A DNA stretch of 64,000 nt from Escherichia coli. GTDB lineage: Bacteria > Pseudomonadota > Gammaproteobacteria > Enterobacterales > Enterobacteriaceae. A model generated the notes under the pieces. It saw nothing but the letters and a program-made list of their open reading frames with translations. It did not search any database and had not been told where the DNA came from. The stretch is taken from the NCBI RefSeq assembly GCF_965641715.1, contig NZ_OZ282453.1. One strand, given 5' to 3'. The translations under genes were made by a program, and so were the position numbers. The number at the start of each line of letters is the position of its first letter. Position 1 is the first letter of the stretch. Of this stretch, positions 26,705 through 62,000 are shown one piece after another.

Positions 26705-26852
26705 TTTAGCCTATTGCCCTTTCCAGCCGGAGAGGGCTTCTTCGGTTAATTGCCAATTTTCCGGCTTTTATTGATTACCGTTATTTTTTCCATGCCCGGC
26801 ATTCTTTATGCTGTATCGATACACCAAAGAGTAAATAATGAGGGAGCAAAGG

Positions 26853-27899
26853 ATGCCAGTTTTGCAGTGGGGAATGTTATGTGTGCTATCACTTCTCCTT
26901 TCTATTGGTTTCCTCGCGGTACATCTCCCGGCGGCATTATTACTTGGGCCGATGATCGCCGGGATCATCTTCAGTATGCGCGGGGTTACCCTGCAACTCC
27001 CCCGCTCCGCTTTTCTCGCCGCGCAGGCCATTCTTGGCTGCATGATTGCGCAAAACTTGACCGGTTCGATCCTGACCACGCTGGCGGTTAACTGGCCGAT
27101 TGTGTTAGCTATTTTACTGGTGACGTTGCTTTCCAGCGCTATCGTGGGATGGCTACTGGTGCGCTATAGCTCACTGCCCGGAAATACTGGTGCCTGGGGC
27201 TCCTCGCCTGGCGGGGCGGCGGCAATGGTCGCGATGGCGCAGGATTACGGCGCAGATATCCGCCTGGTGGCGTTTATGCAGTATCTGCGAGTGCTGTTTG
27301 TCGCGGGGGCCGCAGTTCTGGTCACGCGAATGATGCTGGGCGATAACGCTGAAGCGGTTAACCAGCATATCGTCTGGTTCCCGCCAGTGAGCATTAATCT
27401 CCTGCTTACTATTTTGCTCGCGGTCGTTGCCGGTACAGTGGGATGCCTGCTGCGTCTTCCTTCCGGCACGATGCTCATCCCGATGCTGGCGGGCGCAGTG
27501 CTCCAGTCTGGTCAGCTCATCACCATCGAACTACCGGAATGGCTGCTGGCGATGGCGTATATGGCAATTGGCTGGCGGATTGGTCTTGGTTTCGATAAAC
27601 AAATCTTACTGCGGGCACTACGCCCGCTACCACAAATCCTGCTGTCGATTTTTGCTCTGCTGGCTATTTGTGCGGGTATGGCGTGGGGACTGACACGGTT
27701 TATGCACATTGATTTTATGACTGCCTACCTCGCCACCAGCCCCGGCGGGCTTGATACCGTGGCGGTCATCGCCGCAGGGAGCAATGCCGATATGGCGCTC
27801 ATTATGGCGATGCAAACCCTGCGCCTGTTCAGTATTTTGCTGACAGGGCCTGCCATTGCGCGGTTTATTTCAACCTATGCGCCGAAACGTACGGCCTAG
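26853..27899 (+). CDS. abrB: AbrB-family membrane protein (putative regulator of aidB)
   Basis: Start taken at [21 protein letters not shown]…; 3' end overlaps the convergent nei stop. Confidence 0.85.
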
Positions 27900-28687
27900 T
27901 GCTGGCAGCCCGGACACCAGTAAAACGGGCGAGATGACAGCGTGGTTTTCTCAATGATGCCGCCACAGCGTTCGCACAGTTCGCCATCACGATGAAAAAC
28001 CTTAAAGCGAAACAGCGCCCCATGATGCTTATTCTCATCCACCTGCCCCCGCGTAGCGTAAGAAAACCGAGGAATATCCAGTAACGCGTGTGCGAGTGCA
28101 TCCAGTTGCGCCGCATTGAGGTCTTTCGCTTTATGATTTGCAGTCAACCCAACCTGCCAGAGGATCTCCACCCGCAAATAATTGCCAAGTCCTGCCAGAA
28201 ACGCCTGATCGAGCAGTAATCCAGCAAACTGACGGTTACGAAAGCGCGGCGACAATAATCGTTCCTTTACCACCTCCGGCGTCAGATTCGGATCCAGCAC
28301 ATCGGGACCAACGCGTTGTAAAAACGGATGCGTGGTCAGTTGTTCCGGGGTCAACATCTCAATATCCGAGGCACTATAAAGCAGAATGGTTTTGTCAGCC
28401 GTTTGCAGTTTTACCCGCAATACTCGCGTGGTCTGCGACTCTTCGCCGGTATCAACCACGCGCCAGACGCCATAAAGCTGATTATGGCTGTAGAGCGTTA
28501 AGTCGTTGGAAAAATGAGTTAACAACGCCTTACCACGCGTTTCCACATGGGTAACGTGTTGACCGATAAGTTGTGATTGATAAGTTTTTAACTGCGGGAA
28601 GGCAAACCAGACATCAGTTAGTGGTTTGCCTTTGATCGCCGCCTCCAGGTTATCCGCTGCACGGCGGATCTCCGGGCCTTCAGGCAT
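27896..28687 (-). CDS. nei: endonuclease VIII (DNA glycosylase/AP lyase)
   Basis: 263 aa, [26 protein letters not shown]…; C-terminal zinc finger CPGCQ. Confidence 0.95.
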
Positions 28688-28722
28688 GGTGATATCCTTT
28701 TTTCATTCTTTATTAAACGGGG

Positions 28723-29457
28723 TTATGCTGCGACAACAATCCCCTTTTCGGCAAATGTAGAGCGTAGTCGGCGGGCGAATGCCAGTGCGTGCTCGCCGTC
28801 GCCATGCAGGCAGACCGTTTGCGCCGTGACCGTTGCCCATTCGCCGGTGATACTTTTGACTCTGCCGTGTTGCACCATCTCCAACGTTTGCGCAAGCGCC
28901 TGTTCTTCGTCTTCAATCAGCGCGCCTGACTGGCTTCGCGGCACCAGCGAGCCGTCAGCCTGATAACCGCGATCGGCAAACACTTCCTCGCGCGTTGTCA
29001 GGCCATATTGCTTGCCTGCACGAATCAGCTCGCTTCCTGCCAGCCCAACGAGAACCAATGCTGGATCGCAAGCGTATACCGCTCTGGCGATGGCGTCAGC
29101 CAGTTGTGCCTCTTTCGCCGCCTGGTTGTATAACATGCCGTGCGGTTTGACATGACGCATTACACCGCCTTGCGCACGGGTAATCGTTGCCAGCGCGCCA
29201 ATTTGATACAGCGTCTGGGCGTAAACGGTTTCTGGCGGCAGCTGCATAGCGCTGCGACCAAAATTTTCCCTGTCGGGAAAACTCGGATGAGCGCCAATCG
29301 CGACACCATTTTTTATTGCTTCACGCACGCAAGCTTGCATGGTTTGCGCATCGCCTGCATGAAATCCACAGGCAATATTGGCAGAGGAAACCAGCGTTAA
29401 TAGCTCTGCGTCGCTGGTGCAGCCTTCGCCCAGATCGGCGTTCAGGTCAATTTTCAT
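28723..29457 (-). CDS. pxpA: 5-oxoprolinase subunit A (LamB/YcsF family)
   Basis: 244 aa, [36 protein letters not shown]…; formerly ybgL. Confidence 0.9.
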
Positions 29458-30379
29458 TGTGCAGTCGCCACGCTAATTGTTCAAAATAACGTTGCTGATC
29501 TTGCCGCGCTTTCAGTGCCTCTTCCAGTGAACACTGGACAAAATGAATCGGCTGACCGAGCGGAATTTGCGCCAGATGGTACATATCAGCCTCAATGATA
29601 CAGGCAATACGTGGATAACCACCGGTGGTCTGTGCGTCGTTCATCAACACAATGGGCTGCCCGTTATGCGGCACCTGCACCACGCCCGGTAACAAACCGT
29701 GAGATAACAGTTCGCGATCGGTGGTGCGTTTTAAAATTTGCCCCTGTAAGCGATAGCCCATGCGGTTACTTTGCGGGCTAAGCTGCCAGGGCGAACGCCA
29801 GAATGCATCCTGCGAGGCGCGATCGAACTCATGATATTCCGGCCCCGGCAAGGCGCGAATGCGGTTGCCCCACAGCAGCTGTTTAACGCCCTGCGCTTCC
29901 ATAAAATCACGCTTCGATTTGCCAATCGGGAGTCGGTCACCATCCTTCAGTAAACGGCCTTCCAGCCCGCCAATCCCCACTTTGAGATCGGTGCTGCATG
30001 ACCCCATTACCGGCGGAACATCAATACCACCCGCGACCGCCAGATAACTGCGCATCCCGTGCTGCGGGCGTTTAAGCGTTAAACGCTGGCCTGCTTTCAT
30101 CGGCAATCGCCAGCCGGTCCAGACGGCATTATCATCCAGCAGCGCTTCGCAACCGGCACCCGTCAGAGCAAACCACCCATCAGTTTCGAACTCAACCGTT
30201 AACTGACCGAGCGTGATCTCCAGCGCGGGGGCATTGGCGTCATTACCCACCAGCAGGTTAGCAATGCGTAACGCAGGCATATCCAGTGCGCCGCAGTGGC
30301 TGATACCCGACTGGCGAAAACCGTGACGACCGCCATCTTGCACAGTGGTATACATGCCCGCACGAATAATCTTCAGCAT
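29447..30379 (-). CDS. pxpC: 5-oxoprolinase subunit C
   Basis: 310 aa; formerly ybgK; overlaps its neighbours. Confidence 0.9.
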
Positions 30380-31029
30380 ACTCCCTCCTTTTGCGGTACA
30401 AAGCGCACGCTGTCTCCCGGACGTAATAAGATGGGTTCGTCACGCGCCGGATCAAACAGGCTGAGTGAGGTATGACCAATCAACTGCCAGCCACCCGGCG
30501 TTGCCAGCGGATAAACACCAGTCTGCGGCCCGCCGATCCCGACAGAACCTGCCGGAACGAGCAAGCGCGGTTCAGCGCGCCGTGGCGTGTGTAGTTGTTC
30601 CGGCAAACTCCCGAGATACGGGAAGCCCGGTTGAAAACCTAAGAACCAGACCACGTATTCCACGGAGGAGTGCAATTCAACAACCTGTTTTTCGCTCAAC
30701 CCGCAATGCGCCGCGACCACCGCCAAATCCGGTCCGCCTGCACCACCGTAAACCACCGGAATTTCAATAAAGCGAGACTCAGGTTCCAGGGCCTCGCTCT
30801 CCTCCCACCAGCGTTGCAAACGCTCTATGGCATCCAGCGCCAGCGACTCAGGATTACGCAAAATCACCGTGATATTGTTCATGCCGGGAATGGCTTCAAC
30901 CACATTCGGCATATCCACCAGACGCTGCGCCAGTCGCCAGATCCGTTTCTGGCTAGCCAGCGTCACCGGCGGTTCCAGTTCCAGCACTACCGCCGTTTCA
31001 CCTATCAGATAACAACGCGCTCGTTGCAC
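30373..31029 (-). CDS. pxpB: 5-oxoprolinase subunit B
   Basis: 218 aa; formerly ybgJ. Confidence 0.9.
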
Positions 31030-31051
31030 TTTCGATCCCTCTGATTATTCG

Positions 31052-31795
31052 TTATGCAGGATTAGGAATATCAATAAAGGTCACATCAAGATCGGTATTT
31101 TCGTTCAGCCACTCGCTCAATGCGCGAATACCACCACGTTCAGTGGCATGGTGACCTGCAGCATAAAAATGCAATCCCTGCTCGCGGGCTGAATGAATGG
31201 TCTGTTCAGAAACTTCGCCAGTAATAAAAGCATCCACGCCAAAACGCGCGGCACTATCGATAAAACTTTGCCCGCCGCCCGTGCACCAGGCAACACGCTG
31301 GACCACCTCAGGTCCGGTATCGCCACACCATAACGGCTTACGTCCCAGGCGCGCTTCAATCCAGGAAGCCAGCTCCAGTCCCGGCACAGGCATGGTCAGC
31401 TCTCCCCACGGCACCAACGGCTCAATTTCGCCCATGACCGTGATCCCCAGTAACGCCGCCAGCTGTGCGTTATTGCCCAGCTCAGGATGTGCGTCAAGCG
31501 GCAAATGCCAGCCATACAGGTTGATATCATTCGCCAGCAACGTTTTTAAACGGTTACGCTTCATGCCGCGAATGACCGGAGATTCGCCTTTCCAGAAGTA
31601 GCCATGATGCACAATGACCGCATCCGCGCCCAGACGCACTGCCTCATCGAGCAAAGCCTGGCTGGCGGTGACACCGGTAACAATTTTTTGCACCGTCTCT
31701 TTGCCTTCCACCTGCAAACCATTCGGCGCGTAATCACTAATCGCCGCGCTGTTCAGTTTTTCGTTAATCAGTTGTTCCAGTTCGGTGTTTTTCAT
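31052..31795 (-). CDS. ybgI: Nif3-family metal-binding protein (GTP cyclohydrolase 1 type 2 homolog)
   Basis: 247 aa, MKNTELEQLINEKLNSAAISDYAPNGLQVEG…. Confidence 0.9.
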   Translation of the reverse strand: MKNTELEQLINEKLNSAAISDYAPNGLQVEGKETVQKIVTGVTASQALLDEAVRLGADAVIVHHGYFWKGESPVIRGMKRNRLKTLLANDINLYGWHLPLDAHPELGNNAQLAALLGITVMGEIEPLVPWGELTMPVPGLELASWIEARLGRKPLWCGDTGPEVVQRVAWCTGGGQSFIDSAARFGVDAFITGEVSEQTIHSAREQGLHFYAAGHHATERGGIRALSEWLNENTDLDVTFIDIPNPA

Positions 31796-31882
31796 CTTCG
31801 CGCCTTCCGTATTCTGATAGCTACACCGTTAACATAGCGTTACCTCGCCTGTTCGTCGATAGCCAATCTTTTGACATATTAA

Positions 31883-33547
<1,665 letters not shown>

Positions 33548-33559
33548 TAGGCCAGCACC

Positions 33560-33675
33560 GATGCCTGATGCGACGCTTGACGCGTCTTATCAGGCCTACG
33601 TATTTCCTGCAATTTATTGAATTTGCACAAATTTGTAGGCTGGATAAGGCGTTCACGCCGCATCCGGCATCTGGG
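33560..33675. repeat. REP elements between dtpD and phr
   Basis: gcctgatgcgacgcttgacgcgtcttatcaggcctac and ggctggataaggcgttcacgccgcatccggc. Confidence 0.8.
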
Positions 33676-33696
33676 CTCGATTGCCTGACGCGTCTG

Positions 33697-35115
33697 TTAT
33701 TTCCCCTTCCGCGCCGCCTCATACGCTGCCAACGTTTGTACTCTCGCCTCTTTGTGCTCGACTATCGGTTGCGGATAATCCAGCTTCACACCTGCTTTCT
33801 GCGCCCACTTCCACGGCTCATGCACCGATTTCCCCGGTACATTGCGTAGTTCCGGTAGCCACTGGCGGATAAACTCGCCTTCGCGGTCAAATTTCTCGCC
33901 CTGGGTTGTCGGGTTGAAAATACGAAAATACGGCGCTGCATCAGTACCCGTAGAAGCCGCCCACTGCCAGCCACCGTTATTAGCTGCCAAATCACCATCA
34001 ATCAGCTGCGACATGAAATATCGCTCGCCTTCGCGCCAGTCGATCAATAAATCTTTCACCAGAAAACTGGCTGTAATCATCCGTAGCCGGTTATGCATCC
34101 AGCCAGTGCTATTAAGCTGACGCATGGCAGCATCGACAATCGGGTATCCCGTTTTGCCTTCCTGCCAGGCCTGTAAATGTGCGGGATTGCTCTGCCACTG
34201 CACACGATCCGTCCAGGCAATAAACGGACAATGTTTACACAACGAGGGGTGATACGTTATCAGGTGACGGTAAAACTCGCGCCAGATCAGCTCACTAAGC
34301 CAGACACTACCGGCCCCACCGTCCAGCGCCTGCGGCTGTTCCGCCAACAAGCGATGCAAACACTGGCGAGGCGATAACCCGCCCGTTGCCAGGCTGGCGG
34401 ACAAACGACTGGTGCCTTCCACTGCCGGAAAATCTCGTTGTTGCTCATATTCTCCGGCACCGTTCTGGCAAAACTGGCGTAATTGCGCAATCGCCGCTTT
34501 TTCTTCCACCGGGAAATGCGCAGTATCGAAAGACTGACGAGGATAATTCAGCGTAATGGATGGCGCGGGCTTTATCGATCCGCTACTACGAACTTTTGGT
34601 GCAGCGACGCACTCCGGCATCCCTTCCCGCAGCCGTTTCAGCCAGGCATTCTTAAAAGGCGTAAAGACTTTGTACATCTCATGATTGCCGGTCATCACCG
34701 CGCCAGGCGGCAGGATCACGCTGTCATCAAATCCTTCACACACCACGTTACGCAGCGTTCTCTCAACCTGCACATCCCGCGCCCGCTCATTCACCTCATA
34801 CTGATAGTTATAAAAAAGATGAGTAACGCTGTTTTCCGCGCACACCTGTTTAACTATTTCGACGCTGGCGGCAAAGTCATCCACTTCACGGAACAATAAA
34901 GGAATGCCTTTTTCCGCCAGCGCGATTTGTAGCCCGTTCAGTTGAGCATTGATAAGTTCAGCCTGACGCGGCGACATATTATGCGCCGCCCACTGGCGTG
35001 GTGTAGCGATATACAACGCCAGCACGCGTGCAGACGAATTGCGGCAGGCGGCAGCCAGCGCGAGATTATCATGCAGACGTAAATCCTGGCGAAACCAGAC
35101 CAGATGGGTAGTCAT
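33697..35115 (-). CDS. phr: deoxyribodipyrimidine photolyase
   Basis: 472 aa, MTTHLVWFRQDLRLHDNLALAAAC…. Confidence 0.95.
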   Translation of the reverse strand: MTTHLVWFRQDLRLHDNLALAAACRNSSARVLALYIATPRQWAAHNMSPRQAELINAQLNGLQIALAEKGIPLLFREVDDFAASVEIVKQVCAENSVTHLFYNYQYEVNERARDVQVERTLRNVVCEGFDDSVILPPGAVMTGNHEMYKVFTPFKNAWLKRLREGMPECVAAPKVRSSGSIKPAPSITLNYPRQSFDTAHFPVEEKAAIAQLRQFCQNGAGEYEQQRDFPAVEGTSRLSASLATGGLSPRQCLHRLLAEQPQALDGGAGSVWLSELIWREFYRHLITYHPSLCKHCPFIAWTDRVQWQSNPAHLQAWQEGKTGYPIVDAAMRQLNSTGWMHNRLRMITASFLVKDLLIDWREGERYFMSQLIDGDLAANNGGWQWAASTGTDAAPYFRIFNPTTQGEKFDREGEFIRQWLPELRNVPGKSVHEPWKWAQKAGVKLDYPQPIVEHKEARVQTLAAYEAARKGK

Positions 35116-35621: not shown

Positions 35622-35721
35622 TACTGCTCCTGAACGGTTTACAGGAGTAAGTGTAGACGGCGAAAAGAAAAAACCGCCAGCGTTTCCACTAGCGGTTTTC
35701 AATGTATTCAAAACTCAGCAA

Positions 35722-40654: not shown

Positions 40655-43331
40655 CGAACCCTTACGTCCCGACCCCGATCGTCTGCTGGAACAAACTGCC
40701 GCGCCGCATCGGGGGAAGCTGAAAGTTTTCTTCGGTGCCTGCGCAGGCGTCGGGAAGACCTGGGCGATGCTGGCAGAAGCCCAGCGACTGCGGGCGCAAG
40801 GGCTGGATATTGTGGTTGGCGTGGTAGAAACCCACGGGCGGAAAGATACCGCCGCCATGCTGGAAGGGCTGGCTGTTCTGCCGCCAAAACGCCTGGCGTA
40901 CCGTGGGCGGCACATCAGCGAGTTTGATCTCGATGCCGCCCTCGCCCGCCGTCCGGCGCTGATCTTAATGGACGAACTGGCGCACAGTAATGCGCCAGGT
41001 TCTCGTCATCCTAAACGCTGGCAGGATATCGAAGAACTGCTGGAAGCTGGCATTGATGTTTTCACAACCGTCAACGTTCAGCATCTGGAAAGTCTGAATG
41101 ATGTGGTCAGCGGCGTCACCGGAATTCAGGTACGGGAAACCGTGCCCGATCCTTTTTTCGATGCCGCCGACGACGTGGTGCTGGTGGACTTGCCCCCGGA
41201 CGATCTGCGCCAGCGGCTGAAAGAAGGCAAAGTCTATATTGCCGGGCAGGCGGAGCGCGCCATTGAACATTTTTTCCGCAAAGGCAATCTGATCGCCCTG
41301 CGCGAACTGGCACTGCGCCGTACTGCCGATCGCGTTGATGAGCAAATGCGCGCCTGGCGGGGGCATCCTGGCGAAGAGAAAGTGTGGCACACGCGCGACG
41401 CGATCCTTTTATGCATCGGCCATAACACCGGCAGCGAAAAACTGGTCCGCGCGGCGGCGCGGCTGGCGTCACGGCTGGGGAGCGTCTGGCACGCGGTGTA
41501 TGTTGAAACCCCTGCCCTGCATCGCTTACCGGAGAAAAAACGTCGGGCAATTCTCAGCGCCTTACGTCTGGCGCAGGAGCTGGGCGCGGAGACGGCAACA
41601 CTTTCTGATCCAGCGGAAGAGAAAGCGGTAGTGCGTTATGCCCGTGAACATAATCTCGGCAAGATTATTCTCGGTCGCCCAGCCTCGCGCCGCTGGTGGC
41701 GTCGGGAAACGTTTGCTGACCGACTGGCGCGCATCGCCCCCGATCTCGATCAGGTGCTGGTCGCGCTTGATGAACCACCCGCCCGCACGATTAACAACGC
41801 GCCGGATAGCCGCTCTTTTAAAGACAAGTGGCGGGTACAGATTCAGGGATGCGTGGTTGCCGCCGCGTTATGCGCCGTTATCACCTTAATTGCCATGCAG
41901 TGGCTGATGGCGTTTGATGCCGCCAACCTGGTGATGCTGTATCTACTTGGCGTGGTGGTGGTGGCGCTATTTTATGGACGCTGGCCTTCGGTGGTTGCTA
42001 CCGTCATTAATGTGGTGAGTTTCGATCTCTTTTTTATCGCCCCACGCGGCACGCTCGCCGTCTCTGATGTGCAATATCTGCTGACCTTCGCGGTGATGTT
42101 AACCGTCGGGCTGGTGATCGGGAACCTTACTGCTGGCGTGCGTTATCAGGCGCGGGTAGCCCGTTACCGCGAACAACGCACACGGCACTTATATGAAATG
42201 TCGAAAGCTCTGGCTGTGGGCCGCAGTCCGCAGGACATCGCCGCCACCAGCGAACAATTTATTGCCTCCACGTTTCATGCCCGCAGTCAGGTGTTGTTGC
42301 CCGATGACAACGGTAAATTGCAGCCGTTAACACATCCGCAAGGAATGACGCCGTGGGACGATGCCATCGCGCAGTGGAGTTTTGATAAAGGCCTGCCTGC
42401 GGGTGCGGGCACCGACACGTTACCCGGCGTGCCGTACCAGATTTTGCCGTTAAAAAGCGGTGAGAAAACCTACGGGCTGGTGGTGGTGGAACCGGGGAAT
42501 CTGCGTCAGTTGATGATCCCGGAACAGCAGCGCCTGCTGGAGACGTTTACGCTGTTAGTCGCCAATGCGCTTGAGCGGCTGACGCTGACCGCCAGCGAAG
42601 AACAGGCGCGGATGGCAAGCGAACGTGAACAGATCCGCAACGCCCTGCTGGCGGCGCTTTCGCATGATTTACGCACTCCGCTTACGGTGCTGTTTGGTCA
42701 GGCAGAAATCTTAACGCTCGATCTGGCAAGCGAAGGATCACCCCACGCCCGCCAGGCCAGCGAGATTCGTCAGCATGTGCTGAACACTACCCGACTGGTG
42801 AATAATCTACTGGATATGGCGCGAATTCAGTCCGGCGGCTTTAATTTGAAGAAAGAGTGGTTAACGCTGGAAGAAGTAGTCGGCAGCGCGCTGCAAATGC
42901 TGGAACCGGGTTTATCGTCGCCCATCAATCTTTCTCTGCCAGAACCGCTGACCTTAATCCACGTTGACGGGCCACTCTTTGAACGGGTGCTGATTAATCT
43001 GCTGGAGAACGCGGTGAAATATGCGGGTGCGCAGGCCGAAATTGGTATCGATGCCCACGTTGAGGGCGAAAATCTACAACTGGATGTCTGGGATAACGGC
43101 CCCGGTCTTCCGCCAGGCCAGGAGCAGACGATATTTGATAAGTTTGCTCGCGGGAATAAAGAGTCGGCAGTACCGGGGGTAGGGCTTGGACTGGCAATTT
43201 GTCGGGCGATAGTGGATGTACACGGGGGCACTATTACCGCGTTCAACCGACCGGAAGGTGGTGCCTGTTTTCGTGTTACACTTCCCCAGCAAACTGCCCC
43301 TGAACTTGAAGAATTTCATGAGGATATGTGA
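40647..43331 (+). CDS. kdpD: sensor histidine kinase KdpD
   Basis: 894 aa from [16 protein letters not shown]…; contains the H-box (LSHDLRTPL) and ATPase domain; overlaps kdpC by 8 nt. Confidence 0.95.
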
Positions 43332-44005
43332 CAAACGTTCTGATTGTTGAAGATGAACAGGCTATTCGTCGCTTTCTGCGCACGGCGCTGGAGGGCGACG
43401 GGATGCGCGTCTATGAGGCCGAAACGCTGCAACGCGGCTTGCTGGAAGCGGCTACCCGTAAGCCAGATTTGATTATTCTCGATCTCGGCCTGCCCGATGG
43501 TGATGGGATTGAGTTTATCCGCGACCTGCGCCAGTGGAGCGCGGTGCCGGTGATTGTGCTTTCCGCACGCAGCGAAGAGAGCGACAAAATCGCCGCGCTG
43601 GATGCCGGAGCGGATGATTATCTAAGTAAGCCGTTTGGCATTGGCGAATTGCAGGCCCGTCTGCGCGTCGCTTTACGCCGCCACTCCGCCACCGCCGCGC
43701 CCGATCCGCTGGTGAAATTTTCCGATGTTACCGTCGATTTAGCCGCCCGCGTGATTCACCGGGGTGAGGAAGAGGTGCATCTCACCCCGATTGAGTTTCG
43801 CCTGCTGGCAGTGCTGCTCAACAACGCCGGAAAAGTGCTCACCCAGCGCCAACTCCTTAACCAGGTGTGGGGGCCAAACGCGGTCGAACACAGTCATTAT
43901 TTGCGTATTTATATGGGGCATCTGCGACAAAAACTGGAGCAGGATCCCGCCCGCCCCCGCCATTTCATTACCGAAACCGGTATTGGGTATCGGTTTATGC
44001 TTTAG
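43328..44005 (+). CDS. kdpE: response regulator KdpE (OmpR family)
   Basis: 225 aa, [31 protein letters not shown]…. Confidence 0.95.
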   Translation: MTNVLIVEDEQAIRRFLRTALEGDGMRVYEAETLQRGLLEAATRKPDLIILDLGLPDGDGIEFIRDLRQWSAVPVIVLSARSEESDKIAALDAGADDYLSKPFGIGELQARLRVALRRHSATAAPDPLVKFSDVTVDLAARVIHRGEEEVHLTPIEFRLLAVLLNNAGKVLTQRQLLNQVWGPNAVEHSHYLRIYMGHLRQKLEQDPARPRHFITETGIGYRFML

Positions 44006-44288
44006 GGGTTGAAATGCCGGATGCGGCGTAAACGCCTTATCCAGCCTACTCATCGTCCCGTAGGCATGATAAGACGCGTCAGCGTCGCATCAGGCATGGC
44101 TCTGTGAATAACGTCGGCAAAAACTGGAAAAAGACCCCGCCCTCGCCATTTCATTACCGAAACCGGTATTGGGTATCGGTTTATGCTTTAGGGGCTGACT
44201 TGCCGGATGCGGCGTGAACGCCTTATCCAGCCTACTCATCGTCCCGTAGGCATGATAAGACGCGTCAGCGTCGCATCAGGCATTGGCA
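43927..44288. repeat. tandem direct duplication (~190-bp period, 2 copies) of the kdpE 3' end plus a REP pair
   Basis: Copy 1 at 43927-44098 and copy 2 at 44117-44288 are near-identical; each carries the last ~80 nt of kdpE followed by gccggatgcggcg…ccttatccagcctac and gcctgatgcgacgctgacgcgtcttatcatgcctac palindromes. Confidence 0.85.
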
Positions 44289-44304
44289 CTCATGGCTAAA
44301 TATT

Positions 44305-44799
44305 TTAATGTGTATTTATCGCTTTCAACTCTTGCTGGCATTTTTCTGACTGGCAGCGTCGCAACTCAATAATCCCGACATGCATCATCGAGCCAATAAA
44401 GCCGCTTTCGCTGACATAATCCTCATTAACTATCGGTCGAGTGCCGGGCTTGCCCTGGCAAACCAGCATAAAAAATGAGGTGTAGCACTGCCAGCCGGGA
44501 TTTAAACCGGCTTTTTCTTGTGCTGACATATCGTGAAGATAAATAAGTTCTTTTTCGTTCCCGCCTGACAACTGCCAGCGGCGGGTATTATCAGGTAAGT
44601 TATCGCTACAACAATTTGTCTTACACCGGGAAGGCGCAATATTTACCGCAATGCTACCCTTTAACCCTCTGGTTTTATCTTTAGGGGTCAGTAACCAGTC
44701 GCCAGCTAATGATGATTGTTCAGGTTGGGCACATGCAGTCAGCAGTAGTGTGGCGGCAATGAATGTTACTCTTACGACCAGACTCCTTTTGGTCTTCAT
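44305..44799 (-). CDS. ybfP: lipoprotein YbfP
   Basis: 164 aa with a lipoprotein signal (…LLLTAC…). Confidence 0.85.
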   Translation of the reverse strand: MKTKRSLVVRVTFIAATLLLTACAQPEQSSLAGDWLLTPKDKTRGLKGSIAVNIAPSRCKTNCCSDNLPDNTRRWQLSGGNEKELIYLHDMSAQEKAGLNPGWQCYTSFFMLVCQGKPGTRPIVNEDYVSESGFIGSMMHVGIIELRRCQSEKCQQELKAINTH

Positions 44800-44849
44800 T
44801 TTGAATTCCCTTGAGCTATTCAGTTTGTTGGCAAAGTGCGCGTTGTTTT

Positions 44850-44885
<36 letters not shown>

Positions 44886-44931
44886 AAATGATGCAAATTC
44901 AATATATTGCACCATCAGGCAGTCATACGTA

Positions 44932-54082: not shown

Positions 54083-54301
54083 CGTGGATTCCTCAAAGCG
54101 TAAACAACGTATAACGGCGTATGATCTTATAAGCGGGACAGGCTGACAACTGTTAGTTAGCGAAAAAGTGGTTTTGCGTAAGATATTGGGGCGTTTTCTG
54201 CGCTACAGCCAGCAGATCCTCGCGCTGGAGACGTAAGGCCAAACGTCGCCAGCCTGACGCGTTTATTAAATTTCCGGATGAGCTGGCCGCAGAGTCGTAG
54301 A

Positions 54302-55063
54302 TTAATCCGCTATGATTAAACGCGTCGACAAGGACGCCAGCGTTTTGCGCGTCTGCCCATCAAGCTGATTATCCGTAATAATCTCTGTCAGTTCATTAAG
54401 ATGCGCGATATTAAACAGCGACCATGAACCGTATTTTGAGCTGTCAGCCAGGAGAATTTTGCGCGAAGCATGCGCGATAAGATCGCGTTTTAGTGCGGCT
54501 TTCTCTTCCGTGGGTGCTGTAATACCCTTTTCAAGATCCCAGCTGTTACAGCTTAAAAATGCCACGTCCGGCCAGGTATTTTGCAGCATTTTACGACCAT
54601 GTTCGCCAATGCAGGACTGGCTGGAGTCGTCGATACGTCCGCCGATAATCGTCACTTCAATCTGCTTGAATTCAGCCAAAAAAAGCGCGATATGCAGGTC
54701 GCTGGTGATCACGCGAAGCGGTAAATGGGTAATCTGCCGCGCAAGTTCAATCATTGTCGTACCGGCATCAAGGACGACGGAATCCCCCGCTTTGACCATT
54801 GACGCCGCTGCGCTGGCGATGGCATGTTTTTCCGCCAGGCTGCGCTGCATTTTCTCATGGGTAGTCGGTTGGGTAGGAATAAACCGGTTGAGGGTCACAC
54901 CGCCGTGTGTACGGCTGATAACACCCTGCTCATCGAGTTTTATCAGGTCTCGACGAATCGTGGCCGGCGACGCATTGGTTACCGCCACCAGCTCATCAAC
55001 GGTGACCAGATTATGGCTTTTCAGGTAATCCATGATCTGCTCTAACCGGTTATATCCCTTCAT
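54302..55063 (-). CDS. DeoR/GlpR-family transcriptional regulator
   Basis: 253 aa; N-terminal HTH …[21 protein letters not shown]… typical of DeoR; last gene of the minus-strand kinase-dehydrogenase-regulator operon. Confidence 0.85.
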
Positions 55064-55064
55064 T

Positions 55065-56051
55065 TTATTCTCGCGAAATCTGCATTGCTAACTGGATGGA
55101 AACTGCCATGCTCTCAGACTTGGCTTTTCCTGTCCAGGCAATATCAAATGCGGTGCCGTGGTCGGCAGAAGTACGAATAAATGGCAACCCGGCGGTGATA
55201 TTCACCCCATCATAAAATCCAAGCAGTTTTAAAGGGATATGCCCCTGATCGTGGTACATAGCCACCACCATATCGAATAGCCCTTCATGGCACTGCATGA
55301 ACACGGTATCTGGCGGGCACGGGCCAGTAACATCAATATCTTCGGCCTGCATTGCTTCAATCGCAGGTGCGATAATCTCGATTTCCTCAGTGCCGAATAA
55401 ACCGTGTTCCCCTGCATGTGGATTTACACCCGCCACGGCAATACGCGGACGCTCAATACCGACACGTTTCAGGAAGTGGTTCGCAACTCGAATAACCGTT
55501 TTGACCCTTTCACCGTTCAATGTATCCAGGAATTTACGCAGTGAGATGTGAGTCGAAATATGGATAACCTTGAGCTTATCGGTATAGAGCACCATCGCGT
55601 ACTCTTTGCTGCCGGTAAGATGGGCCAGCAATTCCGTATGGCCAGGATAGTTATGCCCGCCAAGATGCAGCGCTTCTTTATTCAACGGCGCAGTGGCTAT
55701 GGCTTTCACCTCGCCTGATAAGGCCAGGGCCGTTGCACGTTTGATACAGCGATACGCTAAATCGCCTGCCGCAGCCTGTACCACTCCGGGTGTCAGCGCA
55801 TCGGGGTTAGCCAGCGGCTCATCCATCACGTTAATCACGCCGGGAGCAAAGTGGGCGTCGCACACCTTTTGAATGACGCGTAACTCTGTCTGCGGCGTGA
55901 TATTCATCGCCATAATACGTCGTAACGTGCGCACACAGCCCACCACCACCACCGGGGCACCAGCAAGCCCGGCTTCGCTCAGGGATTTAATAATGATCTC
56001 CGGGCCAATACCCGCCGGATCGCCCATCGTTACCGCAATAATATTATTCAC
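55065..56051 (-). CDS. PdxA-family NAD-dependent dehydrogenase (PdxA2-like)
   Basis: 328 aa with a PdxA-type N-terminus (…[14 protein letters not shown]…); adjacent to a DUF1537 kinase. Confidence 0.8.
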
Positions 56052-57282
56052 TACGCTTCTCCTCGATAAAATTCAGAACCTGATGCAACGTGGTCTCATC
56101 GCCAAACCCACCGGCTTTCGTCATCACCGAACGGGACCAGACGCCGCCCAGAAAGTGACCGTATGGAACGCACTGCGCCACCTTCCCCGTAATACGAAAC
56201 CCGGTCGCACCTAACGCACTGGCTGTTGCCATTGCGACATCGCCACCAGAGAGATAAAGGGCATCAGGGGTGACACGAAGCAGAACTTGCCGGGTAAGTT
56301 CGCCAAGAAACCGGCAAATTTTTTCCCCAAGCGCAGCGCGACTCATCTGCCAACGCTGGCAAAGGGTGTCGATATGGTGCCTTGCTTCAGAATCGGTACA
56401 GGTGTGGACAATGCAGTGGTCCCCTTTCTGTAAGGCCTGCACAATACGCGCGTCATAGCCCCTGGCGTTGCCTGCCAGAATGTGTTCAACATCGACGTAT
56501 ATCTGTGTGATACGTGAGTGTGAATGCAGTGTGGCGATCTGCCGTTGAGCGATTTCGCTCATTGAACCAATAATGGCCAGCACGGTGGGTGGCGGCATAA
56601 TCGCCGAGCGCCGGGCAACGGCATCACAAATACCAGCGGAGCCGACCAGCAGCAGCGGTTGTTTAGCCTGCATCACAGCGGCAGCGATGCAATCCAGGTC
56701 GCTGTCCGTCTGCGCATCCATCACCCCAATCCACGGTTGCTCACGAGACAAATGGCTGAGCTCAGAAACTGTAACGGGCTGGCATGGAATGGCCGTCTGC
56801 AACCGAATGATGTCCGCAATTCGTGCGCTCATTACCGGGGTTTTTGGATCGCTGGCAAACTCGGTTTCCGTTAGCCGCACGCCGTTTACCCGACACTCAC
56901 CGTCCACCGTGGTCCTTCCCACCTGGGGAAATGCGGGGGCAACCACTGCGCCCGTTATGCCGCATGCCTGCATCAGGGCTTCAATTTCTGCGCCGATATT
57001 CCCTCGCAGCGTGGAATCTATCTTTTTAATCATGAGCGGCGGGTTATTCGCCAGAGGGAGATGACTCATCAGCGAGGTCATTTTCATCGCGGCCTGCTTA
57101 GGATCCATCGCCCGACTGTCGCTATTAATCACCCATACGCTTGCATCACCGTGATAAGGCGTTGCAAAGGCCACATCAACCGTATGTCCCACCTGCGCCA
57201 GGCTTACTCCTGCGTCGTTGGCCCCTGTGAAATCATCGGCAACGACGAGAATGCTCGGCTTAGTGATTCCCTTTTCCATCAT
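56044..57282 (-). CDS. four-carbon acid-sugar kinase family protein (DUF1537; DtnK/OtnK/DenK-like)
   Basis: N-terminal …ILVVADDFTGANDAG… motif; start ambiguous (57282, 57279 or 57321); overlaps the PdxA-family gene by 8 nt. Confidence 0.75.
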   Translation of the reverse strand: MMEKGITKPSILVVADDFTGANDAGVSLAQVGHTVDVAFATPYHGDASVWVINSDSRAMDPKQAAMKMTSLMSHLPLANNPPLMIKKIDSTLRGNIGAEIEALMQACGITGAVVAPAFPQVGRTTVDGECRVNGVRLTETEFASDPKTPVMSARIADIIRLQTAIPCQPVTVSELSHLSREQPWIGVMDAQTDSDLDCIAAAVMQAKQPLLLVGSAGICDAVARRSAIMPPPTVLAIIGSMSEIAQRQIATLHSHSRITQIYVDVEHILAGNARGYDARIVQALQKGDHCIVHTCTDSEARHHIDTLCQRWQMSRAALGEKICRFLGELTRQVLLRVTPDALYLSGGDVAMATASALGATGFRITGKVAQCVPYGHFLGGVWSRSVMTKAGGFGDETTLHQVLNFIEEKRSE

Positions 57283-57299
57283 CACTCCAGGTTGTTTTA

Positions 57300-57448
57300 T
57301 GATGACAATGATTATATTCAATCACGATTGATTAAATGTGAGCAAGTTCAAGTTATTAATCACTCGAATAAATTATAAAATTAGGCCATGTTACGTAGAC
57401 AACGGTATTTTGAATGATTGATTTCAATCACGAGAAGAGAGGTTATTT
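57300..57448. promoter_or_regulatory. divergent promoter/operator region with repeated TTCAATCACGA motifs
   Basis: Motif at 57318-57328 and 57423-57433, each next to a gattgatt half-site; lies between the divergent kinase and alcohol-dehydrogenase operons. Confidence 0.45.
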
Positions 57449-58606
57449 GTGGTAATTATCAATAGCACGATACTGAGCGGCGCAGGCGCTATCCCTTCCC
57501 TGACGTCGCTCTTACCCGGCGTCAGAAAATTGCTGCTGGTCACAGACAGCAATATTGCGCAGCTTAACGGAGTGCAGCAGATTCGCGCCTTACTGGAAAA
57601 GCACTGCCCGCAGGTGAGCGTTATCGATAATGTGCCTGCAGAGCCTACGCATCATGATGTGCGCCAGCAAATGGCGACCCTCGGCAACGCGTCGTTTGAT
57701 GTAGTAGTGGGCGTCGGCGGCGGCAGCGTGCTGGATGTCGCAAAACTGTTGTCGGTGCTTTGTCACCCCGATTCACCGGGGCTGGATGCGCTGCTTGCCG
57801 GTGAAAAACCGACGCAGCGGGTGCAATCATGGTTGATTCCTACAACCGCCGGTACCGGCTCAGAAGCCACGCCAAATGCGATTCTGGCGATCCCTGAACA
57901 AAGCACGAAGGTGGGTATTATTTCTCCGGTGCTGCTACCGGATTATGTGGCACTTTTCCCCGAGCTGACCACCAGCATGCCCGCACATATTGCAGCGTCT
58001 ACGGGCATTGATGCGCTTTGTCACTTACTGGAGTGTTTTACCGCGACCGTGGCAAATCCGGTCAGCGATAACGCGGCGCTAACCGGGTTAAGTAAGCTTT
58101 TCCGGCATATTCAACCCGCCGTGAACGATCCTCAGGATCTGCGCGCAAAACTGGAAATGCTGTGGGCGTCTTACTATGGCGGCGTAGCGATAACCCATGC
58201 GGGCACGCACCTGGTCCATGCGCTCTCCTACCCGTTAGGCGGCAAATATCACCTGCCGCACGGTGTGGCGAATGCCATCTTGCTGGCACCGTGCATGGCG
58301 GTTGTTCGCCCCTGGGCGGTCGAGAAATTTGCCCAGGTCTGGGATTGCATTCCCGATGCGGATACATCCTTGAGCGCGGAAGAGAAATCTCACGCTCTGG
58401 TGGCCTGGCTACAGGCATTAGTCAATCAACTCAAGCTGCCCAACAATCTCGCGGATCTTGGCGTACCGCCAGATGATATTACGTCTCTTAGCGCGGCGGC
58501 ACTGAACGTGAAGCGCCTGATGAACAATTCCCCCTGCCAACTGAATCAGCGGGACGTGCAGGCCATTTACCAAACGCTGTTTCCGCAACATCAATTTAAG
58601 GAGTAA
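57449..58606 (+). CDS. iron-containing (group III) alcohol dehydrogenase family oxidoreductase
   Basis: 385 aa with GTG start and upstream RBS gagaagagagg; GGGSVLD nucleotide-binding motif. Confidence 0.8.
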   Translation: MVIINSTILSGAGAIPSLTSLLPGVRKLLLVTDSNIAQLNGVQQIRALLEKHCPQVSVIDNVPAEPTHHDVRQQMATLGNASFDVVVGVGGGSVLDVAKLLSVLCHPDSPGLDALLAGEKPTQRVQSWLIPTTAGTGSEATPNAILAIPEQSTKVGIISPVLLPDYVALFPELTTSMPAHIAASTGIDALCHLLECFTATVANPVSDNAALTGLSKLFRHIQPAVNDPQDLRAKLEMLWASYYGGVAITHAGTHLVHALSYPLGGKYHLPHGVANAILLAPCMAVVRPWAVEKFAQVWDCIPDADTSLSAEEKSHALVAWLQALVNQLKLPNNLADLGVPPDDITSLSAAALNVKRLMNNSPCQLNQRDVQAIYQTLFPQHQFKE

Positions 58607-58609
58607 ATC

Positions 58610-59497
58610 ATGCCAAAAACCATTGAAGGTGTATTAACCGCCATCGTCACCCCGTTTACCGCGACCGGCGTCCTGAATCTCCCGGCGTTAAAAGTGCAGG
58701 TTAATCGCCAACTGGAAGCCGGTAACGCGATTTTTTGCGGCGGCACCAACGGCGAGTTTTTTGTGTTGAACGAACAGGAGAAGCTCAGCGTTACGCAAAC
58801 CTGCGTGGATGAAGTGGCTGGCCGCGCACCGGTCGTGGCGCACATTGGTGAGATCTCGACGCGCGAAACCATTCGTCTGGGTCAGCAGATTGAAAAACTG
58901 GGCGTTGATGCGGTATCGGTCATTACCCCGTACTTTGTACCGCTAAAACAGGAAGAGCTGATTGCCCATTACACCGCAATTGCCGACGCACTAAGCATTC
59001 CCATGTTTCTCTATAACATCCCGGCCCGCACCGGCAATACGATTCAGCCGGAAACCGCGCGCGCTCTGGCGTCGCATCCCAATATCATTGGGATTAAAGA
59101 CAGCGCCGGAAGCTACGAAAGCCTGAAGGGTTTTCTCGATGCTGTGCGCAACATTGACGGCTTTAATGTGCTCAACGGCCCGGATTCGCTGATCCATAAA
59201 GGGTTTGTCGAGGGGTGTTCAGCCTGTATTTCCGGGCTCGCCAACGTCGCGCCGCGAGAAATCAATGCCATCTGGTCTCGCTTCCATGCCGGTGATATTG
59301 AAGGATCGTATCAGGCACAGGAGAGTGTGACTGGCCTGCGTACCGATCTTTATAAAGTAGCATTCTCCCCAGCTGCGGTGAAAAAAGCGTTGCAGCTTAT
59401 GGGGCATGATGTTGGTGATAGCCGCTACGCGGTTAATTTCACGCCTGAACAGATCAGCGAGATTCAACAAATTATTCGTCATTATCACATTAATTAA
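58610..59497 (+). CDS. DapA/NanA-family class I aldolase (dihydrodipicolinate synthase-like lyase)
   Basis: 295 aa with GTNGE motif, a Tyr in ITPYF and a Schiff-base Lys candidate in IIGIKDS (Lys163); 3 nt after the dehydrogenase gene. Confidence 0.8.
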   Translation: MPKTIEGVLTAIVTPFTATGVLNLPALKVQVNRQLEAGNAIFCGGTNGEFFVLNEQEKLSVTQTCVDEVAGRAPVVAHIGEISTRETIRLGQQIEKLGVDAVSVITPYFVPLKQEELIAHYTAIADALSIPMFLYNIPARTGNTIQPETARALASHPNIIGIKDSAGSYESLKGFLDAVRNIDGFNVLNGPDSLIHKGFVEGCSACISGLANVAPREINAIWSRFHAGDIEGSYQAQESVTGLRTDLYKVAFSPAAVKKALQLMGHDVGDSRYAVNFTPEQISEIQQIIRHYHIN

Positions 59498-59556
59498 ATT
59501 AACTCTATTATCCAGCCCGCTATAACGTATAGATAAAGAGAATAAAGGATTACCCC

Positions 59557-60315
59557 ATGTTTTTGTGGTTTATGCAGCCAGATATCTGGCTCACTTTAAT
59601 TACCCTCACCTTTCTGGAAATTATTCTCGGGGTGGATAATATTATTTTTCTTTCACTGGTGGTGGCAAAACTTCCGTTATCACAACAAAATATGGCGCGT
59701 AAACTGGGTTTAAGCTGCGCGATGATTATGCGGATATTATTGCTGATATCCATTGCGTGGCTTTCACATATTACCCAGCCGCTTTTTACCGTGCTGGCGC
59801 TGGAGATTTCGTTCCGCACGTTGATTCTACTCGGGGGCGGGCTGTTCCTGATTTATAAAGCGATACAGGAGATACGCGAAGAGTTGTCGCCCGCGCAGGA
59901 AGACGCGCATGGCAGCGGGTCGCGGCAGCTGTCGCTGTGCGGTGCTATCGTACAGATAATGCTGCTGGATATTGTGTTCAGCCTGGACTCGGTGATCACC
60001 GCCGTCGGCCTTTCTCAGCATATATTTATTATGATTGCTGCCGTCATGATTGCCGTTGGCATCATGATGTTTGCGGCGAAAACCATTGGTGACTTCGTGA
60101 ACGCGACGCCATCGATAAAAATACTGGCGTTAACCTTTTTATTATTTGTCGGCGTATTGTTGGTTGCCGATAGCCTCAATATTCATATTGCCAAAGAGTA
60201 TCTCTACTTCGCGATATTTTTCTCATTAAGCGTGGAGACACTCAATATTTTCCGTGAAAGAAGACATAAAAAAGTTTCGACATCGATCGAAACGCATGAA
60301 TCGAACTCGCATTAA
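59557..60315 (+). CDS. TerC-family integral membrane protein
   Basis: 252 aa polytopic protein with a TerC-like …LEIILGVDNIIFLSLV… motif. Confidence 0.7.
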   Translation: MFLWFMQPDIWLTLITLTFLEIILGVDNIIFLSLVVAKLPLSQQNMARKLGLSCAMIMRILLLISIAWLSHITQPLFTVLALEISFRTLILLGGGLFLIYKAIQEIREELSPAQEDAHGSGSRQLSLCGAIVQIMLLDIVFSLDSVITAVGLSQHIFIMIAAVMIAVGIMMFAAKTIGDFVNATPSIKILALTFLLFVGVLLVADSLNIHIAKEYLYFAIFFSLSVETLNIFRERRHKKVSTSIETHESNSH

Positions 60316-60350
60316 TAAATCTATTACCGACTTTAAGATGGAGTCTAACT

Positions 60351-61520
60351 ATGTCTGTAGCTCTTATTCGTGACGGCGTCATCCGTCCGTCCGAAAATGA
60401 TTCGCATGTGCTTACCGCCATGCTGCCCTCGTCCTGCCCGCAAAACCACGCGGCGAATATTCTGCCTTTGCCGGATGGCGCGTTAATGTGCGTCTGGTTT
60501 GCGGGAACGCAGGAAGGTATTGCCGATATTTCCGTCTGGGGATCGCGGCTGCCCGCTGGCGGAACGCAGTGGAGCGATGCGGTCAAACTGTCCCACGATG
60601 ACACGCGTTCAGAGCAGAACCCGGTACTGTTTCTCGCACCGGATAACGTGCTGTGGCTGCTATGGACCGCACAAATATCCGGTAATCAGGACACCGCCAT
60701 CGTCCGCTACCGTAAGTCAGACGACCTCGGACAAACCTGGGGCGAGATTGCCACGCTGCTCGATAAACCCGGCACGTTCATTCGCCAGCCGATCACGGTG
60801 CTTGATAACGGCAACTGGCTGCTGCCCGTCTTTTATTGCCGTACCCAACCCGGTGAAAAATGGGTCGGCAATGATGATATCAGCGCAGTGAAAATTTCCG
60901 CTGACGGTGGTCACTCATGGCGCGATGTCGAGGTGCCGCAAAGTCTCGGCTGCGTTCATATGAATATCACAATGCTGCACGACGGTACGTTGGCTGCTCT
61001 CTTTCGCAGCCGTTGGGCAGACAACATCTATATCAGCCATTCTGCGGACCACGGCGAGAGCTGGTCGGTGCCGCAAGCAACCGAACTGCCCAACAACAAT
61101 TCGTCTATTCAGGTGACGACGCTTGCCAGCGGTGAGCTGGCGCTGGTGTACAACGCAATGAGTGCGGCAGGCGCAGTAGAACGTCGCGCGTCGCTGTATG
61201 ACGAAATCGACGATGGCGACGACAGTCGCAAAGAACCCACAGCCGTTGGACGCTCCGCTTTCTGGGGTGCCCCGCGCGCGCCGATGACGGTAGCGATTTC
61301 TGCCGATGGCGGGAAAAGCTGGCCGTGGCGGCGCAATCTCGATGAAGGCGATGGCTACTGCATGACCAACAATTCGCTGGAAAAGCTAAATCGCGAGTTC
61401 TCCTACCTCAGTATCAAACAAAGCCCGGACGGTACGCTGCATATCGCTTACACCTGGTGGCGTCAGGCCATCAAGTACGTGCGCATCTCCCCCGAGTGGG
61501 TTAAGGGGCAGGCATTATGA
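60351..61520 (+). CDS. BNR/Asp-box repeat protein, sialidase-superfamily beta-propeller, predicted cytoplasmic
   Basis: Four Asp-boxes: SDDLGQTW (60717-60740), SADGGHSW (60897-60920), SADHGESW (61041-61064), SADGGKSW (61299-61322); N-terminal IRP resembles the sialidase RIP motif; no signal peptide apparent. Confidence 0.75.
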   Translation: MSVALIRDGVIRPSENDSHVLTAMLPSSCPQNHAANILPLPDGALMCVWFAGTQEGIADISVWGSRLPAGGTQWSDAVKLSHDDTRSEQNPVLFLAPDNVLWLLWTAQISGNQDTAIVRYRKSDDLGQTWGEIATLLDKPGTFIRQPITVLDNGNWLLPVFYCRTQPGEKWVGNDDISAVKISADGGHSWRDVEVPQSLGCVHMNITMLHDGTLAALFRSRWADNIYISHSADHGESWSVPQATELPNNNSSIQVTTLASGELALVYNAMSAAGAVERRASLYDEIDDGDDSRKEPTAVGRSAFWGAPRAPMTVAISADGGKSWPWRRNLDEGDGYCMTNNSLEKLNREFSYLSIKQSPDGTLHIAYTWWRQAIKYVRISPEWVKGQAL

Positions 61521-61987: not shown

Positions 61988-62000
61988 AAGGAGAGAAAAA

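Follow-up and report, generated by a model that had tools for sequence, protein, structure and literature searches.

A rare tandem duplication of the kdpE 3' end and its BIME on a putatively old speF-potE-less haplotype of Escherichia coli

The window, that is, the whole stretch of 64,000 nucleotides analysed here (E. coli, contig NZ_OZ282453.1), contains a kdpE-ybfP spacer of 299 bp with two tandem copies of a segment comprising the kdpE 3' end and a pair of REPs (a BIME). It is probable, taking all the evidence as a whole, that the locus descends from an old haplotype with an empty site, i.e. without the speFL-speF-potE cassette, and that the tandem duplication arose on it later, as a separate event which is itself old. 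The repeat structure is far beyond chance, and the duplication is real; it is rare in finished genomes, yet not unique.

Gene layout and anatomy of the tandem repeat

The genes kdpD and kdpE lie on the + strand, and kdpE, coding for a protein of 225 aa, is intact, with its TAG stop at 44003-44005 according to the ORF list. It is convergent to ybfP, a gene for a 164-aa lipoprotein whose product has no Pfam match, and ybfP is followed by pgm, which runs on the - strand from 44975, with seqA and ybfF located beyond it. The features of the locus are the following:

43328-44005, + strand: kdpE, taken from the ORF list and annotated as kdpE in A30 and 2018-05-2CC; its last 81 nt are the head of repeat copy 1
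43925-44103, + strand: repeat copy 1, 179 nt, consisting of the kdpE 3' end, an 11-nt spacer, a BIME and a GGCTCT tail, located by the repeat finder and alignment
44016-44049, + strand: REP of the first BIME (GCCGGATGCGGCG...CCTAC), repeat family D2, with a REP core match
44060-44096, - strand: inverted REP of the first BIME (GCCTGATGCGACG... on the - strand), hairpin partner of 44016-44049, -50 kcal/mol
44104-44114, no strand assigned: junction filler GTGAATAACGT, 11 nt, not homologous to any of kdpE, ybfI and the ybfP side
44115-44290, + strand: repeat copy 2, 176 nt, consisting of a non-coding kdpE 3' end (a fossil), a spacer, a second BIME and a GGCACT tail
44115-44191: kdpE-derived part of copy 2, with a 4-nt deletion and its start absent
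44202-44235, + strand: REP of the second BIME, from the repeat finder and a REP core match
44246-44282, - strand: inverted REP of the second BIME, from a REP core match and folding
44305-44799, - strand: ybfP, with the allele identical in A30 and 2018-05-2CC
44849-44912, + strand: REP and linker in the ybfP-pgm spacer, corresponding by orthology to the latter half of the kdpE-pgm spacer in speF-less Escherichia species

The repeat finder returned a direct repeat of 148 nt (43950-44097 and 44136-44283, 97% identity, spacing 186), which is extended at the 5' side by 33 nt (43925-43957 and 44115-44147) with just 79% identity and a spacing of 190. The global alignment shows 10 substitutions between the two copies along with one 4-nt deletion and one 1-nt indel, and nearly all of these changes are located in the first 33 nt, the 11-nt post-stop spacer, one base of the REP loop and the last 7 nt. 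Each copy consists of the final 77-81 nt of kdpE including the TAG, the 11-nt spacer, which has the form GGGG(T/C)TGA(AA/CT)T, and two inverted REPs joined by a 10-nt linker, TCATCGTCCC. A longer linker of the AAATTCAATATATTGCA type is present in the ybfP-pgm spacer. A preliminary description of this DNA, made from the letters alone, had reported a gap of about 300 bp between kdpE and ybfP with two copies of the kdpE tail and REP pair, the second kdpE 3' end being truncated; both the truncated end and the second REP pair are indeed present, and the measured lengths are those given above.

The gap between the copies is the 11-nt filler GTGAATAACGT, for which no source was found in kdpE, K-12 ybfI, the ybfP side or the rest of the window. 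When the junction sequence, taken as 11-27 nt, was locally aligned to upstream kdpE, upstream ybfI and the ybfP-side tail and the scores were compared with those of shuffles, only its first ~13 nt (CAGGCATGGCTCT) gave a match, namely to the post-BIME tail (p ~0.01-0.02). The duplicated unit starts at position 43925, inside the kdpE coding sequence, and there is no REP at that point.

The window contains 19 occurrences of the REP core GCCKGATGCGRCG, the expected number being 0.74, and the core consensus (GCCKGATGCGRCG ... CCTAC) has four matches without a mismatch in the repeat, at 44016, 44083 (-), 44202 and 44269 (-). The two BIME hairpins have minimum free energies of -50.2 and -50.6 kcal/mol (z = -6.4 and -5.1, respectively), with no shuffle being as stable. 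Possessing the REP core, an inverted hairpin-forming pair and an extragenic 3'-end position between the convergent kdpE and ybfP, the spacer elements are ordinary REP/BIME units. BIMEs are elements whose copy number varies through tandem repetition, and REP/BIME elements stabilise upstream mRNA and attenuate transcription.

Against this background, and given two highly stable hairpins between convergent genes and a structure kept across backgrounds ~1-2% apart, the duplicated unit might be regarded as a selected functional element, such as a small RNA, a doubled terminator or a 3' structure that stabilises the mRNA of the kdp operon or of ybfP. This is very unlikely. No Rfam family reaches its threshold in the repeat, the best scores for naRNA4 (Rfam RF02564, the REP325-derived RNA) being 33-37 bits under a gathering threshold of 59.5 bits, which is generic REP similarity only; the promoter and terminator scan gave no enrichment above background; one copy is lost in close relatives, and most kdpE-ybfP genomes have a single copy. 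The kdpE gene is intact and the spacer amounts to two strong BIME hairpins separating convergent genes, nothing more, and the duplication is probably neutral.

Haplotypes of the kdpE-pgm junction and the absence of speF-potE

The gene order in K-12 is ybfP, ybfG, ybfI, potE, speF, speFL, kdpE, with ybfG and ybfI being pseudogenes, which bears out the order assumed in the preliminary description. Compared to this arrangement, speFL-speF-potE and ybfG are absent between kdpE and ybfP, as had been stated, and so is ybfI. Identity of the window to K-12 continues to 44003 in the kdpE stop, with kdpE being 97% identical to its K-12 counterpart up to that position, and resumes at 44301, 4 nt past the ybfP stop, so that 5.1 kb of K-12 DNA are missing from the window between the breakpoints. 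No SpeF or PotE matches were obtained with tblastn within the 64-kb window. Aligning the junction with K-12 and other E. coli, a check proposed together with the original observation, reveals both the duplication and the missing 5.1 kb.

The distribution of these features was determined in 5426 complete E. coli genomes. A fused query of the kdpE 3' end and ybfP placed kdpE within ~900 bp of ybfP in 251 of them, and a longer native kdpE-ybfP query did so in 247, but the copy-2 junction is present in only two, A30 and 2018-05-2CC, leaving 249 of the 251 kdpE-ybfP genomes without the duplication. Among the genomes examined, eco-241, Combat11I9 and ET201 have the single-copy arrangement kdpE-BIME-ybfP, and a single-copy span of the same kind is listed for strain 042. 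Outside the complete genomes, the duplication was detected in about a dozen further assemblies. An exact-protein look-up of the window YbfP returned its allele in 155 blocks of the assembly collection, and in the 24 contigs read among the matches listed the 300-bp spacer with the same junction is found in at least six places and a 114-bp spacer in at least two.

Short tandem repeats with strong hairpins are error-prone in assembly, which might suggest that a short repeat was collapsed or expanded artificially. Such an artefact is scarcely conceivable here, as the junction, the filler and copy 2 recur in assemblies made independently, among them two finished chromosomes and a contig lineage from a gut metagenome, and the copies differ at no fewer than 10 positions, allowing reads to be placed unambiguously.

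The decarboxylase gene speF was found at ≥90% identity in ~5046 of the 5426 genomes and next to kdpE in 4810, these counts being loose, and not decisive as a test for speF at other positions, since the speF 5' end is just ~80% identical between alleles. Nissle 1917 and O157:H7 have the order kdpE-speFL-speF-potE-pgm without ybfP, ybfG and ybfI, and K-12 and XH992 have the long form of the locus. The kdpE-pgm junction thus exists in at least five haplotypes with deep mosaicism, which bears on pangenome and metabolic-model annotation.

In species-representative genomes scanned with KdpE as a query, kdpE is located directly beside pgm in Pantoea, Serratia, Dickeya, Yersinia-like genomes and many Citrobacter and Enterobacter, and speF-potE lies between the two genes in E. 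albertii, Kluyvera, Atlantibacter and other Citrobacter and Enterobacter. Within Escherichia, the arrangement kdpE-BIME-pgm with neither speF nor ybfP was found in E. whittamii and SCPM-O-B-8794. The latter is labelled E. coli, yet it is only 93-95% identical to the window. In both genomes kdpE ends with ...ATGCTTTAG, followed by GGGGCTGAATT and then GCCGGATGCGGCG, and the succession of TTTAG, GGGGCTGAATT and GCCGGATGCGGCG is common to both window copies, the single-copy E. coli alleles and these two speF-less Escherichia genomes. The E. whittamii spacer is 92% identical to 43982-44042 and to 44168-44228, its REP and linker are 89% identical to 44849-44912 upstream of ybfP, and its terminator is 97% identical to the pgm terminator. 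In K-12 and E. albertii, kdpE has a TGA stop followed by AT-rich DNA of the speFL leader, as do all speF-bearing alleles, and there is no REP after kdpE in K-12.

Because this left junction (TAG, GGGGCTGAATT and REP) is shared with speF-less Escherichia species, the absence of speF-potE appears, as far as sequence comparison goes, to be an old trans-specific "empty-site" allele and not a fresh deletion from a K-12-like locus, the direction of change between the haplotypes being judged from a few dozen loci and a handful of informative sites at a heavily recombining locus rather than from a genome-wide phylogeny. For deeper ancestors, an ancient precise loss of speF-potE with subsequent spread of the empty allele may have taken place, given that speF-potE occupies the same position in many genera.

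A different history had been proposed in the preliminary description, where the repeat was taken for the footprint of a REP-mediated deletion or duplication; under this model ybfG-ybfI-potE-speF-speFL was removed from a K-12-like ancestor by one REP-mediated event, which left the repeat as its scar. The repeat is indeed located exactly at the missing 5.1 kb, REPs are generally known as rearrangement substrates, and there is a REP-like half-site beside ybfI in K-12. However, a deletion scar would have K-12-type flanks right up to the novel junction, and here the stop is TAG instead of TGA and is followed by a spacer and a REP as in speF-less Escherichia, the 11-nt spacer being identical in those species, at a position where K-12 has no REP. 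The duplication is absent in 249 of the 251 kdpE-ybfP genomes, the left end of the unit lies within kdpE and is REP-free, copy 2 fits kdpE no worse than it fits K-12 ybfI, and no ybfI alleles resemble copy 2. A single deletion from the K-12 arrangement is therefore highly improbable, and the model is largely refuted already. As just 2 of the 251 kdpE-ybfP genomes carry the duplication, the absence of speF-potE and the duplication are separate events, and since the duplicated genomes form a tiny subset of the kdpE-ybfP genomes, the duplication is the later one. The tempting inference of a loss relative to K-12 is hence corrected: the absence of speF-potE would be an old allele common to sister species.

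The presence of speF elsewhere in the chromosome was addressed with a chimeric query made of the window ybfP allele and a 420-nt speF segment whose identity across E. coli alleles is no lower than 97.6%. At the top of the resulting list, A30, 2018-05-2CC and three single-copy genomes matched it in one place each (ybfP), speF-bearing genomes matched in two places, and there was only one match of speF on a plasmid in the whole complete-genome collection. The gene is thus absent from the chromosomes of A30 and 2018-05-2CC, the two closest complete genomes (about 99% identical locally). The preliminary description had concluded that the strain lacks inducible ornithine decarboxylase and its antiporter at this locus; with both genes absent from the window and speF absent from its two closest complete relatives, the strain very probably has no acid-inducible ornithine decarboxylase and putrescine antiporter. 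It would presumably rely on the constitutive speC. The same phenotype, i.e. no acid-inducible ornithine decarboxylase and no putrescine-ornithine antiporter, is predicted for some 5% of the complete genomes of E. coli. The gene speF is reported to belong to the metabolic genes that are most often pseudogenised in the E. coli pangenome (PMC13322260), and ornithine decarboxylase genes are known to vary in Salmonella (PMC9748477, PMC3768506); a literature search on lineage-specific speF loss in E. coli returned nothing specific.

Origin and age of the duplication

The most probable course of events begins with a haplotype in which kdpE, ending with TAG, is directly followed by a BIME and on which the speFL-speF-potE cassette was possibly never present. 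Relative to the species with kdpE-BIME-pgm, the sole addition would be a ~0.8-kb ybfP segment inside the ancestral BIME, with a REP on either side. Later, ~180 bp made up of the final ~80 nt of kdpE, the BIME and some 7 nt past the BIME would have been tandemly duplicated through an illegitimate join, to which the REP-free left end and the 11-nt filler point; replication template switching or illegitimate recombination near the strong hairpin may have been the mechanism. Recombination between REPs, which would place REPs at both ends of the unit and the join within a REP, was considered as the origin of the join and is ruled out by the REP-free left end at 43925 in the kdpE coding sequence and by the filler.

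At six or more of the 10 differing sites, copy 2 has the state of speF-less Escherichia or of other single-copy alleles, with GGAAC, CAAGA, GACCC, CCTCGCC, GGGGCTGA and GTGAACG as examples of ancestral states, and what is private to it amounts to no more than three substitutions and the 4-nt deletion. Since its states are mostly ancestral or those of single-copy alleles, copy 2 is best described as a fossil of an earlier kdpE allele and not as a rapidly decayed recent copy. It is a non-coding remnant keeping ancestral kdpE bases, while the functional copy 1 has been overwritten variably by allelic recombination. In A30, copy 1 has an ET201-like kdpE tail and spacer and copy 2 is unchanged.

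The BIME-core bases CCAGCCTACTCATCG are present in both copies and absent from all other alleles examined, which favours, on the sequence evidence, an intrachromosomal duplication. The near-identity of the core of the copies is probably due to gene conversion. At one position, copy 2 of the window agrees with copy 1 of the window in having C, and T is found there in six other duplicated genomes (ATTTCATT vs ATTTTATT); another duplicated locus has copy 1 with the copy-2 T. Gene conversion taking place now and then between the copies would fit both cases.

The divergence among duplicated genomes reaches 2.4% towards kdp and 0.9% towards pgm, so the structure is either long-lived or has been passed around. 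Two loci, L012 and L014, carry an identical ybfP allele and a single copy that is a chimera of a copy-1 spacer and REP loop (GGGGTTGAAAT, GTAAACG) and a copy-2 tail (GGCATTGGCACTCATGGCTAAATA). They are nested in the diversity of the duplicated genomes, with L012 being the nearest relative of the window on the kdp side, and their single copy is explained in one step by a crossover between the copies, so it is quite reasonable to suggest that homologous recombination occasionally collapses the repeat to one chimeric copy. These two loci were also considered as ancestors of the duplication and were rejected, as this would need convergent reversion of copy 2 to ancestral states at several sites.

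K-12 has a kdpE 3' fragment of its own, which had not been mentioned in the preliminary description: ybfI (b4636), on the far side of potE, between potE and ybfG, is a 142-nt kdpE 3'-end fragment 89% identical to kdpE. An orthologue would share its boundaries and flanks, but both the 5' and the 3' flanks of copy 2 differ from those of ybfI, and none of the 5426 genomes has a ybfI allele covering the junction, which excludes copy 2 as an orthologue of ybfI. A distant-mode search with the junction and copy 2 returned A30 and 2018-05-2CC only, other genomes matching through kdpE at 88% or less. Copy 2 is therefore analogous, not orthologous, to K-12 ybfI. The literature search on ybfI together with kdpE and on the origin of ybfI gave nothing specific.

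It is conceivable, though unlikely, that the repeat is a scar left by illegitimate integration of the one-sided, homology-facilitated kind. The incoming DNA with kdp...kdpE-BIME would have recombined homologously upstream, and its right end would have been joined illegitimately, with the 11-nt filler, to the resident kdpE 77 nt short of the end of that gene, leaving the resident kdpE tail and BIME as copy 2, and ybfI would be the analogous scar of the arrival of speF-potE in K-12. This would account for the filler at the join and for the clustering of the copy differences at the edges, copy 2 being a different, older allele; an extra T is absent from the copy-1 tail, as in 042-type alleles, and present in the copy-2 tail, as in ET201. 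The position of the 142-nt kdpE fragment just past potE in K-12 also fits, and speFL and the speF 5' part are only 77% identical between K-12 and Nissle/O157, compared with 98-99% for the speF 3' end and potE, a contrast from which it follows that foreign segments do enter the kdpE-speF locus. Nevertheless, the lineage-specific BIME-core bases CCAGCCTACTCATCG make the copies each other's closest relatives, later allelic replacement of copy 1, which is visible in A30, accounts for the edge differences, and E. coli is generally known not to be naturally highly transformable.

With the same low probability, the kdpE 3' end could be a recurrent landing point for one-sided integrations at a kdpE/pgm hotspot, each kdpE-tail fossil marking a separate exchange of cargo. 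If that were true, ybfI would represent the arrival of the foreign segment with speFL and the speF 5' part and copy 2 the replacement of a resident kdp allele, and from such fossils the succession in which speF-potE, ybfG and ybfP were gained and lost across Escherichia could be worked out. Under the preferred reading, an old empty site followed by a separate duplication, the finding is that of a gene tail and a REP hairpin present in duplicate, a small and probably neutral change beside a known presence/absence polymorphism, and it matters little for mechanism. No paper describing this kdpE-tail duplication variant was found.

Comparison with known systems

REP-mediated tandem duplications of the chromosome with join points in REPs have reportedly been described in Salmonella and E. 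coli. The duplication reported here is likewise a tandem one and lies beside REPs, but those duplications are large and have REPs at both ends, whereas the unit here spans 186 bp, has a REP near one end only and carries a filler at the join.

As in the REP/BIME elements of E. coli, each copy ends in inverted REPs forming a long hairpin at a position between convergent genes. Unlike them, the unit also takes in 77-81 nt of kdpE coding sequence, and its left join lies in unique coding DNA.

Copy 2 resembles K-12 ybfI in being a promoterless kdpE 3' end which reaches the kdpE stop downstream of the true kdpE, and both keep the ancestral CCTCGCCATTTTATTAC motif. They differ in length, with 142 nt in ybfI and 77 nt in copy 2, and in location, ybfI being 5 kb from kdpE, past speFL-speF-potE; in addition, ybfI continues with TGA and ybfG-side DNA, in contrast to the TAG and BIME of copy 2.

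The speFL-speF-potE operon is the cargo missing at this site. In comparison with the loss or decay of ornithine decarboxylase in Salmonella, there is no decayed gene here and the site is a clean empty one, homologous to that of speF-less sister species.

Other differences between the window and K-12

The first 9378 nt of the window (1-9378) are unlike K-12, which carries mngR-mngA-mngB at the same place. The region looks like a methylaspartate-pathway island, its products being glutamate mutase E chain, methylaspartate ammonia-lyase, an AtuA-like protein and a dicarboxylate symporter, as well as a class I fumarase-type hydratase, a corrinoid adenosyltransferase and a LysR regulator. Five alternating repetitive extragenic palindromes (REPs) are clustered at 11629-11820 as a multi-unit bacterial interspersed mosaic element at the sucD/sdhX-side boundary; here the alignment to K-12 overlaps with itself.

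Further along, the identity to K-12 falls to 89.8% at 21813-34622, compared with 97-99% for the flanks, and the region is a strongly divergent allele block with the following content:

21813-34622: phr, dtpD, ybgI, pxpBCA, nei, abrB and the fimbrial genes ybgOPQD

The K-12 rhsC element (~9.5 kb, from rhsC to ybfD, K-12 729.4-739.0 kb) is missing at 35659-35668, where ybfA nearly adjoins ybgA, as is also the case in Nissle and O157. Between glnS and nagE there is a 9.1-kb insertion relative to K-12 (54158-63290), encoding a DeoR regulator, a PdxA-like dehydrogenase, a four-carbon acid-sugar kinase (SBD_N/NBD_C), an Fe-alcohol dehydrogenase, a DHDPS-family lyase, TerC, a BNR sialidase-like protein, a YhcH-family protein and a CitMHS transporter.

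Occurrence of ybfP and speF among E. coli genomes

ybfP is itself an accessory gene. In the Nissle 1917, ST131, UTI89-type and O157:H7 genomes of the collection the gene order is kdpE-speFL-speF-potE-pgm, with ybfP, ybfG and ybfI all missing. When the window ybfP allele fused to a 420-nt speF segment was used as a query, 116 of the 5426 complete genomes gave no match to ybfP or the speF segment. E. coli HS, searched with a kdpE+speF query, matched the kdpE half alone.

Make-up of the K-12 locus

The K-12 pseudogene ybfI is a 142-nt fragment of the kdpE 3' end (4722-4871 and flanks in the K-12 locus), preceded by the REP-like half-site ATGCCGCATCCGGCA and by the motif GTTTGTTGGCAAA. Since this motif is found upstream of ybfP too, the flanks of ybfI suggest that the K-12 arrangement is a composite, in which a speF-bearing segment was joined to a speF-less haplotype carrying ybfG-ybfP.

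The speF region was compared over these segments:

K-12 locus (L001), 8062-9056
Nissle 1917 locus (L098), 8401-9489
O157:H7 locus (L099)

The kdpE-speFL spacer, the speFL leader and the first ~400 nt of speF are ~77-83% identical between K-12 and both Nissle and O157, whereas the speF 3' end and potE are 98-99% identical, which places a sharp mosaic boundary within speF. Over the kdpE-speFL spacer, the speFL leader and the speF 5' end, K-12 diverges from Nissle and O157 at a level seen between different genera.
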